NCBI GenBank assembly: GCA_951406725.2
Contig: OX597817.1
Span: forward strand, 168,826,001 to 168,890,000
DNA length: 64,000 bases
Source of the DNA: Octopus vulgaris
Taxonomy: Eukaryota
Direction of reading: 5' to 3'
A model generated the notes under the pieces. That model did no database searches and was not told the origin of the DNA. It worked only from the letters and a program-made list of their open reading frames with translations. The position numbers were made by a program, and so were the translations under genes. Shown one piece after another: positions 5,876-62,823 of this stretch (its first letter is position 1; each line of letters opens with the position of its first letter).

Positions 5876-7109
5876 CAGGGGTTGGACAGAATAATGGAAA
5901 CACCTAACATCATAGCATCATAATTTTGAAATATCAATAGAACTGTGAAAAGCTTGTTTATTTTTATGTTTTTTGATTTATTATTAGTGTTGCTTAATAT
6001 GTTTGTTTTCAGATATGAGAAAAAGGTAATTAAAATTCATTAAAATGATAGATATATCAGATTTTCAAAGAGGTCAAATTGTTGGTGCTCATATGGCAGT
6101 CACTAGCATAATGAAAGCAGTCGAAATATTTGCTGTATCAAGAAGTACTATCTTGAAAGTAATAACAGCCTTTGAGAAAGAGGGAAAAATTTCCTCGTTG
6201 AAGCAAAACTCCAGAAGAAACCAAAACTTTCAGATAGGGAATGTTAGAATTTTATGCGAATTGTCAGAAAGGATCATAAAAGTACAGCTGCCCAAATTAC
6301 TGCAGAGCTTAATGACCACCTCGCGAACCCAGTTCCCACAAAAACTGTTTGCTAGGAACTGCACAAAGCCAGATTTCATGGGAGGGTTGCAAACAGAAAA
6401 CCACTACTTTCAAAAACAAACATTGCAAAGCATTTAGAGTGGAGTAAAAACCTACAGAATTGGTCCCTAGATCAGTGGGAGGGTGTTATTTTCTCTGAAA
6501 GTCATCCTTTACCTTATTTCCAACCACCAGCCGAGTATACGTATGGAGACAGCCAAAAGAAGCATTTCACCCAGACTGCCTTCTTCCATCTGTTAAACAT
6601 GGAGGAGGATCTGTGATGATCTGGGAGTGGGGAGCTATATCTTGGAAATCCACTGGCCCAATGGTTTCCCTTCATAGCAGAATTAATAGTCAAGACTATT
6701 TAAGCATTTTATCTGATCAAATTCATCCTATGGTTGCGGAACTGTTTCTGGAGGGAAACACAATCTTTCAGGATGATAATGCACCAATTCACACAGATAA
6801 AGTTGTTACTGAATGGCACGAGGAACATTCTAGTGAACATCTTATCTGGCCACTACAGACCCCACATTGCAATAGTATTGAACATTTATGGTGCATTTTA
6901 GAAAAACAAGTAAGGAGTCGATATCCTCCACCATCATCACTACAAGAACTGGAGACTGTTTTAGTTGAAGAATGGACAAAAATTCCTTTGGAAACAATTC
7001 AAACTTTGTAGAATTCAAGCTATAATTACAGCCAAAGGTGGTCCTACCCCATATCAAAATAAATTTGTTTGAAATTTTAAGGTGTTTCCATTATTTTGTC
7101 CAACCCCTG
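5876..7109 (+). mobile_element. Full-length decayed Tc1-family DNA transposon
   Basis: 30-bp TIRs caggggttggaca(g/a)aataatggaaacacct with 1 mismatch; TA on both sides (5874-5875, 7110-7111); transposase remnants inside. Confidence 0.95.
6045..7011 (+). pseudogene. Frameshifted Tc1 transposase
   Basis: N-terminal HTH-like segment ISDFQRGQIVGAH..VSRSTI; C-terminal IFQDDNAPIH...WPLQTPHCNSIEHLW (degenerate Tc1 DDE signature); split across frames. Confidence 0.9.
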
Positions 7110-15304: not shown

Positions 15305-15890
15305 TAATAATAATAATAATAATTGTGTACAGTGCTCAGGTGCACTACAACTCATCTAAAGTGTATATATAATCAGGTGTAGTTTTGGCGGATTTCGGAA
15401 AGCATGAGGGCCTTAAAGGATGCAGTGTCATGGCAGTCAACAACTGACGCAGGCAGTTTATTCCATGCTTCAGCAACTCTGAGCGTGAAAAATGTTTCTG
15501 AAAGTCATGGGAGCTGTGTTGTTTTCTGACTTTGTAGGCATGTCCACGTGTGTTAGACACATGGAGATCAAAAAGGTGTTCAGTGTTGTTGTTGGTGAGG
15601 TGGTTGATAACTTTGTGGGTGCTTACCAAGTCCGTCGCCAGACGCCGGAGCTTCAGTGAATCCATGCCCAGGGAAACAAGGCGCTCAGAATATGGTAGGT
15701 GTCTGATGGAGGGTATGCATTTGGTTGCACGTCTCTGGACAGATTCCAGGAGGTCAATGTTCTGAGCAAGATAGGGGTTCCAAACTGATGATGCGAATTC
15801 CAAGTGTGGTCGTACCATAGCTGTATACAGTTTTAAATAGATGGCTGGAGAGCGGCTAACAAAAGACCTGCTGAGTGATGCCAAGACACA
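15305..15890 (-). mobile_element. CR1-type LINE 3' end (ORF2 C-terminus plus (TTA)n tail)
   Basis: LYTAMVRPHLEFASSVWNPY...LESVQRRATK...YSERL..LGMDSLKLRRL..DL is typical of CR1/L2-group ORF2 C-termini. Confidence 0.9.
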
Positions 15891-16033
15891 TAATTTATGC
15901 AATCTGTGCTTCTTAGGACTTTCCGAGTGGCTGAATGAATTGAATTGTCTTTTAGCAGAGCTGCGTGCCTAATAATGGTGAGCCATATTTCATGCAGCCT
16001 GCTTCTCAAAAGAGGTTGCCCATGACTGATGTA

Positions 16034-25749: not shown

Positions 25750-26334
25750 GATATCCTTGGCACGCTGTTTCTTCTCCCCTCTTTAATTCCTTCCTTCTCT
25801 CTCTCTCTCCCCCTTGGTGCCTTTGTCCCTTTCTTTCTCTCTCTCTTTGATTCCTTGCCCCCTGCTTTTCTTTCTCTCTCTTCTGTCCTCTCACGTGACT
25901 GCCGCCGCTCAAACTGGTCTTTTCGGCTTGACCACTGCCATGTTAACACTGTTGTCTTCGTTTGCCGCAAAGGCATTTTTTTCAAAATACGCCAGCCAAG
26001 ATAAGTTAAAAATTGTCTGAAGTCGTAAGACACCCGCTGTTTTGTCCTGTTATTACTATTCTTGTTTTTTATTTCTATTTTTTGTTTCTTGTATTTATAT
26101 TCGTGTGGCATTCTGTCCTTGTTTCGTATGCATTCGATCCTAATGCTCGTAGCTTAGTTTTTCTTTGGGGCTGGCCGTATCGGAGCGATATCAGGATTAA
26201 ACAGCCGAAATTGCTAAGATGATCCGGTTCCCGACTGAAGATTAGAGGCTTCGAATGACCCGTCTGTTTTTTTGTGTCGTCTCTTTGTGTGTTTTTACAT
26301 TCTTGCCCCATTTTGTAATTTATATTTAATTTCT

Positions 26335-26340
<6 letters not shown>
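25750..26340 (+). mobile_element. Unclassified repeat, possibly a Penelope-like pLTR, with a structured RNA motif
   Basis: Homologous to 61915-62640(-): pyrimidine tract, tcacgtgac, conserved block 26165-26265, ends in (TA)n. Confidence 0.6.
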
Positions 26341-33490: not shown

Positions 33491-34220
33491 ATATATATAT
33501 ATATATAAATTATATAAATAAGGATAAGATTGATATTTAAATATCGAACTTATCAAGAGGCCAGCATGAGTTCAAATTCCACCAGGGTTAACTTTGCCTT
33601 TCATCCTTTTGGAGCCAATAGAATATGTAATTGTTAAGCACTGGGATTGATGTAATATATATATATTAGAAGGTTTGGAGATGATGTACAGGTATTTTAT
33701 ATTAGAAGAAATGCCAGCACCGCCCCAACTGGCTTCTGTGCCGGTGGCACATAAAAAGCACCATCCGAACGTGGCCGATGCCATAAAAAGACCATCCGAA
33801 TGTTGCCAGCGCCGCCTTTGCTGGCTTCCGTGCCGCTGGCACGTTAAAAGCTCCAACCGATCGTGACCGATACCGGCCCCCCCCCCTGGCACCTGTGCAG
33901 GTGGCACATAAAAAGCACCCACTACACTCGCGGAATGGTTGGCGTTAGGAAGGGCATCCAGCTGTAGAAACTCTGCCAGATTAGACTGGAGCCTGGAGCA
34001 GCCCCTGGCCTCCCAAACCCCGGTCGAACCGTCCAACCCGTGCTAGTGCGGAAAACGATGATGATGATGATGATGATGAAGTACTCAGAAATTCGGATGG
34101 TTTTATATTTACAGATATTTATTTGTTTGTTACATGTTTTTTATACATCATATATTATATATTAGCACTTTCATCCATTCTAGTGGAGTCTTCAAATTGA
34201 AAGTGTGTGTATGTATATTG

Positions 34221-34557
34221 AGGGATTACCAATTCAGGCAGAATACTTTATAAGTTCTCTGTTAGTACAGGGATTACCAATTCAGGCAGAATACTTTATA
34301 AGTTCTCTGTTAGTACAGGGATTACCAATTCAGGCAGAATACTTTATAAGTTCTCTGTTAGTACAGGGATTACCAATTCAGGCAGAATACTTTATAAGTT
34401 CTCTGTTAGTACAGGGATTACCAATTCAGGCAGAATACTTTATAAGTTCTCTGTTAGTACAGGGATTACCAATTCAGGCAGAATACTTTATAAGTTCTCT
34501 GTTAGTACAGGGATTACCAATTCAGGCAGAATACTTTATAAGTTCTCTGTTAGTACA
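34221..34557. repeat. Perfect 48-bp minisatellite, 7 copies
   Basis: agggattaccaattcaggcagaatactttataagttctctgttagtac repeated identically with no spacers. Confidence 0.97.
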
Positions 34558-34779
34558 CCAGGTTAACAGTATTGTTTGGATTAGTAAAAAACTCCACATA
34601 CAACCATAACAAAATGACTGACAAAAGTTGCATTAATTCTCTAGGTCATTCAATTTTTCTTAACTGATCAATGGACTGTGTGAATCAATCAATAACAAAC
34701 CTATAATGACTACTGGAAACAGCTGTGAGTCAAATTTACTCCAGTAAAAAATATGTAATGACAATTATTTACGGCTTGT

Positions 34780-46022: not shown

Positions 46023-46559
46023 GTGTATATGTGTGTGTCTATATGTGTGTTGTGGTTGTGTCTATATGTCTGTAATAGACATGTGTGTATGTATGTTTGG
46101 GCATATTTGTATTTTTTTATTTATTTATTTATTTATATATGTGTGTGTGTGTGTCTATATATACACACACACACACAAACACAGCTGCACACACATATAC
46201 ATATATACATGATGTGTGTGTGGTACAATGTTATAAAAGCGTTTTCTCGAATGCAAAGTCAAAACTACAAAAACAAAATCTAACACCTGCATCACCATCA
46301 CAACCATCATCATCACTACCATCATCACCTCCACCATCACTATCACCGTGAATAACAACAACAACAGTCATAGAAATCAATACAACATTATACAGAAGTG
46401 TATCGGTACAGTTTTAATACTACCAATTCGGTTATCACCTTCAGTTTCTTGTGATTATTAACACTTGTGTATATGTGTGTGTATATATGTTTAATAATAT
46501 GGATGTGTGTGTGTGTCAGTGTGTCCACGTATACATACACCCAGACCCATGCTCATATG

Positions 46560-46634
46560 CGTGTGTATCTGTGTGCATGTGTATATATACATATGTGTGT
46601 ATGTATGTGTGCGTGTGCACATACACCCACACTC

Positions 46635-46668
<34 letters not shown>

Positions 46669-47500
46669 CTATGTGCATGTGTATATATACATATGTGTAT
46701 ATATACACACGTGTGTATGTATGTATGCGTGTGCACATACACCCACACTCATATGTGTGTGTGTGTGTATCTATGTGCATGTGTATATATACATATGTGT
46801 ATATATATACACACGTGTGTATGTATGTGTGCGTGTGCACATACATTCACACTCATATGTGTGTGTGTGTGTATCTATGTGCATGTGTATATATACATAT
46901 GTGTATATATACACACGTGTGTATGTATGTATGCGTGTGCACATACACCCACACTCATATGTGTGTGTGTGTGTATCTATGTGCATGTGTATATACATAT
47001 GTGTATATATACACACGTGTGTATGTATGTGTGCGAGTGCACATACACCCACACTCGTGTGTGTGTGTGTGTATCTATGTGCATGTGTATATATACATAT
47101 GTGTATATATACACACGTGTGTATGTATGTGTGCGTGTGCACATACACCCACACTCGTGTGTGTGTGTGTGTATCTATATGCATGTGTATATATACATAT
47201 GTGTATATATACACACGTGTGTATGTATGTGTGCGTGTGCACATACACCCACACTCGTGTGTGTGTGTGTGTATCTATATGCATGTGTATATATACATAT
47301 GTGTATATATACACGCGTGTGTATGTATGTGTGCGTGTGCACATACAACCACACTCATATATGTGTGTGTGTGTATCTATGTGCATGTGTATATATACAT
47401 ATGTGTATATATACACACGTGTGTATGTATGTGTGCGTGTGCACATACAACCACACTCATATATGTGTGTGTGTGTGTATCTATGTGCATGTGTATATAT
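46560..47500. repeat. About 100-bp higher-order minisatellite built from TG/TA/CA microsatellite (about 9 units)
   Basis: Landmark gtgcacatacacccacactc recurs near 46625, 46741, 46845, 46947, 47047, 47147, 47247, 47347 and 47449. Confidence 0.9.
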
Positions 47501-47754
47501 ACACACTCACCCACACATGCATGTGTGTGTGTGTATACTTACACATACAGTCATCAGCACCACTGGATGTGTGTGTGTATGTCAGTGTGCATACACCCAC
47601 ACTCATATATGTGTGTATCTGTGTGCATGTGTATATATACATATGTGTATATACACACACACATGTGTGTGTATGTACACATACACCCACACCCATACTA
47701 TGTGTGTGTGTGTGTGTGTGTATATCTGTGTGCATGTGTATATATACATATATG

Positions 47755-52650: not shown

Positions 52651-53932
52651 TATATACCTGGGCTGGTGGCATATAAAAAGCATCCAGTACACTCTGTAAA
52701 GTGGTTACCATTAGGAAAGGCATCCAGTCATAGATACCTTGTCAGAACAGATAATTAGAGCCTGGTGCAGCTCTCTGGCTTGCCAGCTTTTGTCAAATCA
52801 TCCAACCCATGTCAACATAGAAAACAGATATTACATGACGATAATGATGATGATGATATATCTGTGTGTGTGTCTGTACACATATATGATATTACTATAT
52901 ATTTAACTTCATCATATATGCATGTATATATATGTATATATATATATACTGACATACTGTGCACATTTGCAGTTGATAGCCTATATATCTATTCATATTT
53001 GTGTATGTGAATGTATGCCAGTGTATCTCTGCATTTGCATCTGTTTATTAATCAGTGTGTGTGTCTGTGTGTACATGCATGTGTGTGTATGCATGTCAGT
53101 ACTGTAATACAAAGGATTTTACTGTGTGTATGTGAATGTATCAGTCTCTGTTTGTGCGTCAATGCGTACGTGTGTATGTGTGTGTATGTCACTTTGTGTC
53201 CGTGCTACAACAGAATCTTCTGCTAACAAGATCATTTCTCAGTTTATTGATTTCTTCTTTGAATTCTCTAACGACACATTTCCTCAGCTGTTGACACAGT
53301 TTTGATATCGGAATGAGGTCTGGGTTCTTTACCACATCTGCTTCTATGCAGTCTATATACATTGGGAAAAAAGAAAAAAGAAAAAATTGCTAACAACTAT
53401 ATTGGAATCAATGATTATACTGGAAGTGGTGTTGCAGAACTGTGTGAAGGTTGTGAGTCAGTTGAGTTCTTGACTCTGACATATCATATTGTTGATATTG
53501 TCACTGCAATGTCAGAAACAGTGTGAAGGTTCGAGAAAGTTAAATTCTTGAGTCTGACAGCTCTCTTTATTGAAATGATAACCCTTATGCTAGTAATAAT
53601 TGGAAGCTTTTGTATTCCTGAGGTCTTGACTGTTACATCTTCTATTGCTGAATGGGTCTTTCCTATGAGAGATATGATGTGGAAGCTTTAGAGATGCTAA
53701 GAATTTTGAATCTGACAGCTTGTTCTCATCATTGAAATAGTTTGTAGTTTAATATCAGAAATGTTATGAATGTTTCGTGCAAGTGAAAGCTTGAGAAAAC
53801 AACTTTTACTGTTGAAATGCTATTATAATAAAGAAATGTTGGTACTGATAACTGTGGCTATGGCGAGGCAAGTAATGTTAGGAATGATGATGGTGGGAGT
53901 GGTTTCAATAGTGGTATTAGCTATAGTACTCT

Positions 53933-54899
53933 GGCAGCGACCTGGCAGACACGTTAGCATGCCAGGTGAAATGCTGAGCAGTATTTCGTCTGTCGTTATG
54001 TTCCGAGTTCGAATTCTGCCGAGGTCGACTTTGCCTTTCATCCTTTTGGGGTCGATTAAATAAGTACCAGTTATGCACTGGGGTCGATATAATCGACTTC
54101 ATCCGTTTGTCTGTCCTTGTTTGTCCTCTCTGTGTTTAGCCCCTTGTGGGTAGTAAAGAAATAGGTATTTCGTCTGCTGTTACGTTCTGAGTTCAAATTC
54201 TGCCGAGGTCGACTTTGCCTTTCATCCTTTTGGGGTCGATTAAATAAGTACCAGTTACGCACTGGGGTCAATATAATCGACTTTATCCGTTTGTCTGTCC
54301 TTGTTTGTCCTCTCTGTGTTTAGCCCCTTGTGGGTAGTAAAGAAATAGGTATTTCGTCTGCTGTTACGTTCTGAGTTCAAATTCTGCCGAGGTCAACTTT
54401 GCCTTTCATCCTTTTGGGGTCGATTAAATAAGTACCAGTTACGCACTGGGGTCGACATAATCGACTTCATCCGTTTGTCTGTCCTTGTTTGTCCTCTCTG
54501 TGTTTAGCCCCTTGTAAGTAGTAAAGAAATAGGTATCTTGTCTGCTGTTACATTCTGAGTTCAAATTCTGCCGAGGTCGACTTTGCCTTTCATCCTTTCG
54601 GGGTCGATTAAATAAGTACCAGTTACGCACTGGGGGTCAATATAATCGACTTTATCCGTTTGTCTGTCCTTGTTTGTCCTCTCTGTGTTTAGCCCCTTGT
54701 GGGTAGTAAAGAAATAGGTATTTCGACTGCCGTTACGTTCTGAGTTCAAATTCTGCCGAGGTTGACTTTGCCTTTCATCCTTTCGGGTCGATTAAATAAG
54801 TGCCAGTTATGCACTGAAGTCGATGTAATCAACTTAATACCTCTGTCTCTCCTTGTTTGTCCCTTCTGTGTTTAGCCCTTTGTGGGTAGTAAAGAAATA
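53933..54899 (+). mobile_element. SINE family B, one head plus five ~184-bp bodies
   Basis: Units restart at 54164, 54348, 54532 and 54717; flanked by a ~108-bp direct repeat. Confidence 0.95.
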
Positions 54900-61935: not shown

Positions 61936-61981
<46 letters not shown>

Positions 61982-62640
61982 GTAAAAAAATATACAAACT
62001 GGGACAAGAACGTGAAACATGTAGAAGACGACACAAAAGACACTGACGGGACATTCGAAGCCCTCAATCATCAGTCAAGAACCGGATCATCTTCGCAATT
62101 TCGGCTGATTAATCTTGAGATTGCTCCGATCTGGGCAGCCCCCAAGGGAAATCTAAGCCAAGCACATTAGATTCCTTGGAAGAAAGCCTCGAATGTATAC
62201 AACACAGGGACGGAAAACGGACGATGTTACACGAATAAAAATACGTAAAAACAATAATAACAAAACCAGGACGTCAGGACAAGCTTCTTTTCGACAGGAC
62301 GAGTTAAGTTTGGGGCTGGCTATGGAAGAGTGCCTTAAGGCCACAGGAGAACAAACAAATGTGTGTTGCCACAATGACTGCTGGATGCGAAAAGGCAGTG
62401 GTCGCTGGCTGGTCACGTGAGCACAAGAGAGAGGAGAAAGGGACAGATGAAGAGAGAAAGAAGGGGAACAAGGGAGGAGAAGAAAGAGAGGGAAAGAGAC
62501 AGATCAAGGGGAGTGCAAAGGGTGAAGGCAGAGAAATGTAGGAGAGGGGGGGAAAAAGAGACAGTGTAGTAGAGTTGTACCAATGTTAGAGAGTAATATA
62601 CTTACGTATAGAGTCAAAAAAGTGGGTACGTAGCCGCCAT
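61915..62640 (-). mobile_element. Second, diverged copy of the 25750 repeat
   Basis: Minus strand reads ggctgcccagatcggagcaatctcaagattaatcagccgaaattgcgaagatgatccggttcttgactgatgattgagggcttcgaatg, which aligns with 26169-26257. Confidence 0.65.
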
Positions 62641-62823
62641 GTATATATTTACGACGGGCTTCTTTCAGTTTCCGTCTACCAAATCCACTCATAAGGCTCT
62701 GGTCGGCCCGAGGCTATAGTAGAAGACACTTGGCCAAGGTGCCACGCTGTGGGACTGAACCCGGGACCATGTGGTTGGTAAGCAAGCTACTTACCACACA
62801 GCCACTCCTGCACCTATAATGGC

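Follow-up and report, generated by a model that had tools for sequence, protein, structure and literature searches.

A probable hammerhead-type self-cleaving fold with a split core at the 3′ end of non-coding Penelope-like repeats in Octopus vulgaris

Introduction

Does a 64,000-nt stretch of the Octopus vulgaris genome (contig OX597817.1, positions 168,826,001 to 168,890,000; hereafter the window) hold a hammerhead ribozyme whose parts stand in an unusual order, and if so, what kind of element carries it? A reading of the sequence alone had proposed two diverged copies of a pseudoknotted, non-circularly permuted hammerhead at the end of a Penelope-like element (PLE). The numbering of the hammerhead and its core consensus, made up of the pieces CUGANGA, GAAA and UH, are long established. 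We denote the blocks carrying these pieces C, G and S, respectively; in hammerhead types I–III they follow the circular order C-G-S, with no pseudoknot in the core. Eckert et al. (2023, PMC10085705) described three types of non-circular hammerhead, SGC, CSG and GCS, and validated them in vitro; in these, a fourth helix links stems I and II. In the passages of that paper used here, CUGANGA and its flanking stem strands are assumed to be inseparable, and the search descriptors demand the stem II strand 0–1 nt past the core.

Results

The repeat and its copies

Both proposed copies are present, at 26169–26241 on the forward strand (copy 1) and at 62140–62068 on the reverse strand (copy 2), and they are 80% identical over 185 nt. 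Helices A, B, C and D (stem II, the stem I–II helix, stem III and stem I in Table 1), their order and the core pieces can all be read directly from the sequence, as can the G-C to A-U change that distinguishes helix D in the two copies. Two further helices, E and F, which flank A9 and G10.1, had escaped the sequence-only reading, and so had a 15-nt deletion in copy 1 that takes out part of E/F. Because of this loss and of the A·C mismatch in the SF1 stem I, copy 1 itself may be a dead ribozyme. A structure descriptor (stem II strand, B, UH, GAAA, B′, CUGANGA) matches exactly two places in the window, namely the two copies, and an Rfam scan of the window yielded no hammerhead or other ribozyme family among the best 150 of 248 matches (E ≤ 1). 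The window also contains tandem arrays at 34173–34605, 46449–47662 and 53931–54899, with periods of 48, ∼100 and 184 nt, and open frames of 170 aa (6499–7008, +) and 207 aa (15348–15968, −), which we take to resemble a Tc1-type transposase and the tail of a LINE reverse transcriptase (RT).

Table 1. Coordinates of the two repeat copies in the window and of the predicted ribozyme parts within them
Feature	Position	Strand	Remarks
Copy 1, an SF1 member of the non-coding Penelope-like repeat	25765–26337	+	5′-truncated, (TA)n at end; 92% to positions 188–767 of the SF1 unit of locus L029
Copy 1, helix E 5′ strand (outer part) and what is left of hairpin F	26131–26157	+	inner E/F lacks 15 nt
Copy 1, stem II 5′ strand, then helix B 5′ strand (stem I–II interaction)	26169–26181	+	G10.1 = 26169
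Copy 1, block S: stem III strand, UH, stem I strand	26185–26196	+	U16.1 = 26189, H17 (A) = 26190; predicted cut 26190/26191; one A·C mismatch in stem I
Copy 1, block G: stem II 3′ strand, GAAA, stem III strand	26202–26214	+	GAAA 26207–26210
Copy 1, helix B 3′ strand, stem I strand, CUGAAGA core	26221–26241	+	CUGAAGA 26235–26241
Copy 1, helix E 3′ strand	26242–26257	+	immediately 3′ of A9
Copy 2, full-length SF2 unit	61972–62644	−	no ORF, (TA)n at end; 88% over the whole 723-nt SF2 unit of locus L244
Copy 2, helix E 5′ strand and hairpin F	62142–62195	−	intact; E 62180–62195, F 62142–62179
Copy 2, stem II 5′ strand, helix B 5′ strand, stem III strand, H17, stem I strand	62113–62140	−	stem II strand 62136–62140; H17 (C) = 62119; predicted cut 62119/62118
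Copy 2, stem II 3′ strand, GAAA, stem III strand, helix B 3′ strand, stem I strand, CUGAUGA core, helix E 3′ strand	62052–62107	−	CUGAUGA 62068–62074; E 62052–62067

Both copies are members of a non-coding Penelope-like repeat of ∼720–790 nt. A degenerate core pattern found 8,102 exact matches in the 2.8-Gb genome assembly of 227 contigs, against 0 for a control pattern, and genome searches with four queries gave four families, SF1–SF4; a further family, SF5, is of the Naiad type (see below). The copies have a common 3′ end ∼147 nt past the predicted cut, where they run into (TA)n; their 5′ ends are truncated to varying degrees, and they also occur as partial or full tandems. At one locus (L244, C1:79498500-79503500) five SF2 units of 720–726 nt lie head to tail with 98.6–99.9% identity, the pattern expected from rolling reverse transcription on a circle. 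No ORF was found in SF1–SF4 units or in the window copies. This is the anatomy of a non-autonomous PLE (compare PMC8557442), and the repeat has the Naiad traits of a (TA)n insertion bias, 5′ truncation and partial or full tandems, which other PLE clades of this genome share. By eye, a CACGTG box ∼270–300 nt upstream of the motif is kept in all four families (L027, L053, L064, L111) and a splice-donor-like GTA(A/G)GT lies close to the 5′ start of the unit in SF2–SF4; these might be an internal promoter and an intron, like those of other PLEs.

Secondary structure

For a pair test we picked 17 natural copies whose upstream parts are intact, namely copy 1 and four from each family; 16 of them are distinct. 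Among these 16, 89% of cells are paired, compared to 25–47% in slid controls, and two-sided changes occur in 14 of the 45 pairs. Kinship of the copies raises the shuffle control, and SF4 is scored with helix B unpaired owing to a shifted register. At the level of families (131 copies, five families) pairing is kept in 29/30 pairs of stem I and in 25/25 each of stem II and stem III; the stem sequences of SF4 and SF5, although unrelated, still pair. Helix B, the contact between stems I and II, shows two two-sided changes and a register shifted by one in SF4. Alignment of genomic copies, which had been suggested as a check, bears the helices out: stems I, II and III, along with the stem I–II helix, covary across five families. 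A set of 15 further variants adds compensations in stems II and III; 3 of the 15 are without the upstream part.

The core is retained as well. All 13 invariant positions are kept in all five families, with variation at N7 (A, U, G) and H17 (A, C), as in hammerheads, and each family has CUGANGA, GAAA, UH with H not G, the pair G10.1–C11.1 and stems I–III adjoining the core. An intact core was found in 24/29, 26/29, 15/29, 15/24 and 15/20 individual copies of the five families. The predicted H17 of copy 1 in the refined fold is the very base after which the cut had been placed (26190). The order of the blocks is S-G-C (UH, GAAA, CUGANGA) and not the circular C-G-S, and its position at the 3′ end of the repeat agrees with what had been proposed. 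This order had been taken as possibly undescribed; it is, however, already that of type SGC (PMC10085705) and hence no novelty. Inspection by eye also led us to drop a reading as an HDV-like, twister or pistol ribozyme, as the helix order does not fit.

Could short motifs have fallen into this arrangement by chance within a repeat? They are short indeed, and copies of one family are not independent; however, the same-order descriptor gave one match in 100 dinucleotide shuffles of the window, against two in the real window, and the covariation between families and across phyla refutes chance, to which we give practically no weight.

The sequence-only reading had left the 5′ strand of stem II undecided between an upstream ggctg and a ggct downstream of the core. 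The upstream strand stands: with it stem II is 96% paired and shows three two-sided changes, whereas pairing with the downstream GGCU drops to 80% and is broken in SF3. The downstream strand would make an ordinary type SGC hammerhead, with stem II formed by GGCU five bases past A9 and a 5-nt bulge in between. That pairing is possible in SF1 and SF2 (12/16 rows per pair), and SGC-1 and SGC-2 carry one extra U at the same point (PMC10085705). Yet it is broken in SF3 (2/4 pairs) and partly in SF4 and is absent in SF5, while the upstream strand follows every change; the bases downstream of A9 are taken up by helix E, and the published split Naiads, read by eye, have no downstream partner (PMC8557442). 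We therefore hold an ordinary SGC hammerhead to be quite improbable.

Because stem II takes the upstream strand, the core is opened between A9 and G10.1. The bases 3′ of A9 pair with an upstream strand to form helix E, E adjoins hairpin F, and the 3′ end of F adjoins G10.1. Unconstrained folding recovers E and F in SF1–SF4 copies (z −2.0 to −3.7); z is +0.45 for SF5 and −1.35 for copy 1. Since outer E and most of F hardly vary, their support in this genome is partly conservation and not covariation. In SF1 and SF2 the two E pairs adjoining A9 are U·U, and nested-only folding favours rival pairings of the stem II strands in these families. The secondary structure supported by covariation is one in which two extra helices replace the A9–G10.1 bond, giving a four-way junction and a ribozyme of ∼150 nt; in three dimensions, E and F may stack coaxially within this junction.

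Insertion ends at the predicted cleavage site

We determined where the 5′ ends of insertions lie relative to the predicted cut (position 0). Sample 1 was drawn from the first 100 matches listed to the core pattern; it used 80 of them as loci and comprised 88 copies. With a pattern that needs a match from +7 on, 58 ends lie beyond −100, 14 in −99 to −3, none in −11 to −1 and 16 in 0 to +6 (5 exactly at 0), a pile-up with p = 1.4e-9 against a uniform distribution. For sample 2 the sole criterion was a motif at +85; of its 340 matches the first 90 were taken, of which 88 aligned and 2 were dropped. This sample has 3 places in common with sample 1, and 5 come from one tandem array. Here 35 of 88 ends fall in 0 to +19 (6 exactly at 0), 3 in −9 to −1, 9 in +20 to +84 and 15 in −100 to −3 (p = 6.6e-6 for −2 to +7 versus +8 to +82). 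The edge of the pile-up falls on the predicted bond, and most of the piled-up ends lie 5–19 nt inside it, on AT-like bases able to pair with the target. Fragments upstream in tandems gave no clear peak, with 2 real ends at −3 to 0 among 33 rows. About half of the copies read through the predicted site, so some templates were presumably uncut or re-joined. We regard the pile-up as an indirect sign of cleavage in vivo; it might serve as a genomic read-out of this reaction.

The same ends could be read differently, namely as the trace of a hammerhead-derived fold that has lost cleavage and now acts as a structural signal for the RT of the element, the pile-up then resulting from stalling of the RT in the knot and from (TA)n microhomology. 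The many ends at +5, +7 and +9 on AT-like bases, as well as the read-through in about half of the copies, would suit such a fold, and Naiads are said to proliferate without canonical ribozymes (PMC8557442). On the other hand, the catalytic bases are invariant and H17 is never G in five families, and the edge is sharp, with 5 and 6 copies in the two samples starting exactly at the predicted bond. Furthermore, the RT meets E, I and B first (+37 to +66), yet few ends are found there (9 in +20 to +84). Loss of cleavage is thus an unlikely explanation in our view, and a fold that still cuts is the preferred one.

Ribozymes of Naiad elements

The passages of Craig et al. (2021, PMC8557442) used here report no canonical hammerhead in Naiads and hold 10 mentions of a ‘core’ and 8 of a ‘half core’, cases left unexplained there. 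Of the 54 Naiad sequences published in the supplement of that paper, we inspected 22 by eye over their final ∼600 nt. Six of the 22 (two octopus Naiads, Acropora nasuta, Clytia Naiad-3, Morbakka Naiad-2 and Beroe) clearly have the split form together with E and F, and by eye they share the fold, with different stem sequences. In A. nasuta every one of the six helices is fully paired, and stem I of Beroe has only 2 pairs. An imperfect split form was seen in the Euprymna Naiad. Complete type CSG hammerheads were recognized by the same means in 5 of the 22 (Pristionchus arcanus, Nippostrongylus Naiad-2 and -3, Heligmosomoides, Stegodyphus mimosarum), and for 9 of the 22 no ribozyme was seen by eye in the last ∼600 nt. 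The 3′ end of Naiad-1_Movir has a twister-like motif whose P4 loop matches the twister alignment in the supplement of PMC10085705, so some Naiads may use twister instead. Naiad-1_Chem and Naiad-2_Chem have in common a structured-looking motif of ∼80 nt at the 3′ end, which is not a hammerhead.

In the octopus genome a short Naiad-type pattern has 292 matches, against 0 for its control, and Naiad-like copies closely resemble, by eye, the octopus Naiads of the PMC8557442 supplement. Naiad_Ovul, annotated ‘HHR_half_core’ in that paper, and the RT-bearing copies of this genome end in the same fold; in the Naiad-like copies L208–L210 and L226 it lies ∼1.1–1.5 kb behind the RT core, and L210 retains a 292-aa RT frame (RVT_1 E 2e-4, below the cut-off). 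Of 20 loci around Naiad-like RT matches, 10 have an SF5-type motif and none a motif of SF1–SF4 type. RT fragments were found for SF5 only, and the N-terminal GIY-YIG that a Naiad ORF has along with its RT was not seen in any copy examined from this genome. A search for the parent of the ORF-less families gave 30 + 15 GIY-YIG loci. All were PLEs with a C-terminal endonuclease or fragments, and none carried the motif; one of the 30 matched the descriptor, apparently through an unrelated inserted copy. Among these 45 GIY-YIG and the 20 Naiad-like RT loci there is no ORF-bearing element with an SF1–SF4 ribozyme. SF1–SF4 and the autonomous Naiad have the same architecture and a similar helix B, without an SF1–SF4 profile match behind the RT; the window copies differ from SF5 in stem sequence. 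The form of the predicted ribozyme ties SF1–SF4 to Naiads, and their direct parent is not among the loci examined.

Five further loci (L217, L222, L223, L213, L220) belong to a Naiad family that is older and diverged; its SF5-type motif has decayed, and its hairpin F covaries. The genome also contains a young family of 781-aa PLEs with a C-terminal GIY-YIG and many intact frames, inserted in (TA)n, whose 3′ end (L243:4182-4230, L242:4293, L127 ∼2665) carries a minimal type I hammerhead-like motif with U3–A8 in place of C3–G8 and a palindromic loop III. This family could mobilize SF1 and SF2 in trans.

Discussion

Taken together, covariation and insertion ends point to a pseudoknotted hammerhead-type fold whose order is non-circular; it lies at the 3′ end of a Naiad-type PLE without coding capacity and likely cuts itself after H17 (26190 on the forward and 62119 on the reverse strand); we put the probability of this reading at about 80%. 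In such a ribozyme the three stems and the core would assemble like any hammerhead, with G12 as base and the 2′-OH of G8 as acid, the roles given to them in hammerhead catalysis (PMC11300833), acting at H17. Helix B would clamp stems I and II, as in types SGC and CSG, and A9 would run into helix E, stacked on hairpin F, which in turn would run into G10.1. The cut, ∼147 nt from the 3′ end of the unit, would release the RNA of the element from tandem or read-through transcripts, and reverse transcription would be primed at (TA)n. On a cleaved template the RT would stop at the cut and leave short copies starting there, whereas on an uncut or circle-rejoined template it would read on, giving full units and tandem arrays. 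Processing of tandem transcripts, and possibly circles, are suggested here by analogy with PMC4209133 and bioRxiv 10.64898/2026.07.22.740005. The split form itself probably arose from a CSG-type Naiad ribozyme via circular permutation in a tandem repeat.

More broadly, and with somewhat less assurance, we think that Naiads do have hammerheads, hidden as non-circular forms: a split A9/G10.1 core bridged by a four-way junction in a ctenophore, cnidarians and cephalopods, which would be a fourth, undescribed topology, and CSG in nematodes and spiders. These would cleave in vivo and set the 5′ ends of insertions. If true, this would explain why Naiads seemed to be without the ribozyme of other PLEs; these would be the first hammerheads of non-circular form in animal genomes, and with a biological setting, hammerhead permutations would exceed the six thought possible while the CUGANGA block was assumed indivisible, and descriptor-based counts of ribozymes in animal genomes would be underestimates. 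Our literature search, which covered few subscription journals and no bioRxiv supplements, found no split-core form, no non-circular hammerheads in Naiads or animals and no precedent for a core that is active although A9 and G10.1 lie on different strands; the passages of PMC13725137 and PMC10162972 used here likewise report no split-core or non-circular animal hammerhead.

Among known systems, the minimal type I hammerheads that occur in PLE pLTRs and in non-LTR retrozymes (PMC4209133; bioRxiv 10.64898/2026.07.22.740005) likewise sit close to a 3′ end, either of a PLE or of a non-coding unit in tandem, and are likewise proposed to process tandem transcripts. They are circular, however, and often have a stem III of 1–2 bp that needs a dimer, whereas the octopus fold has a 5-bp stem III, with which activity as a monomer is to be expected, and two pseudoknots. 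The repeat is tandem and non-coding like a non-LTR retrozyme but has no type I hammerhead. The PK hammerhead (Zhan et al. 2024, PMC11300833) shares with it a pseudoknot, an extra helix and an unchanged core; there, A9–G10.1 is continuous, the pairing partner of loop II is a 5′ hairpin loop and the block order is circular, while here the stem II strand lies upstream.

Closest are types SGC and CSG, which have the same cyclic strand order, core and four helices including that between stems I and II, and which cleave in vitro with these helices (PMC10085705). The linker from stem I to stem II is 5 nt here and typically 3 in SGC/CSG. According to the passages of PMC10085705 used here, SGC was found in metatranscriptomes (583 sequences) and CSG in metagenomes (2), with no genome of a known organism having a non-circular form save for one GCS candidate; here there are thousands of copies in an animal retroelement. 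Type SGC further has an unbroken block C, with the stem II strand 0–2 nt past A9, and in SGC/CSG it follows CUGANGA directly (0–1 nt), whereas in the octopus fold it stands at the 5′ end and the gap is filled by E and F. Because it is opened at A9/G10.1, the motif would work like SGC and CSG and yet fall outside both. What is new, as far as the fold predicted here goes, is the upstream stem II strand together with the replacement of the A9–G10.1 bond by two helices, which breaks the block rule of PMC10085705.
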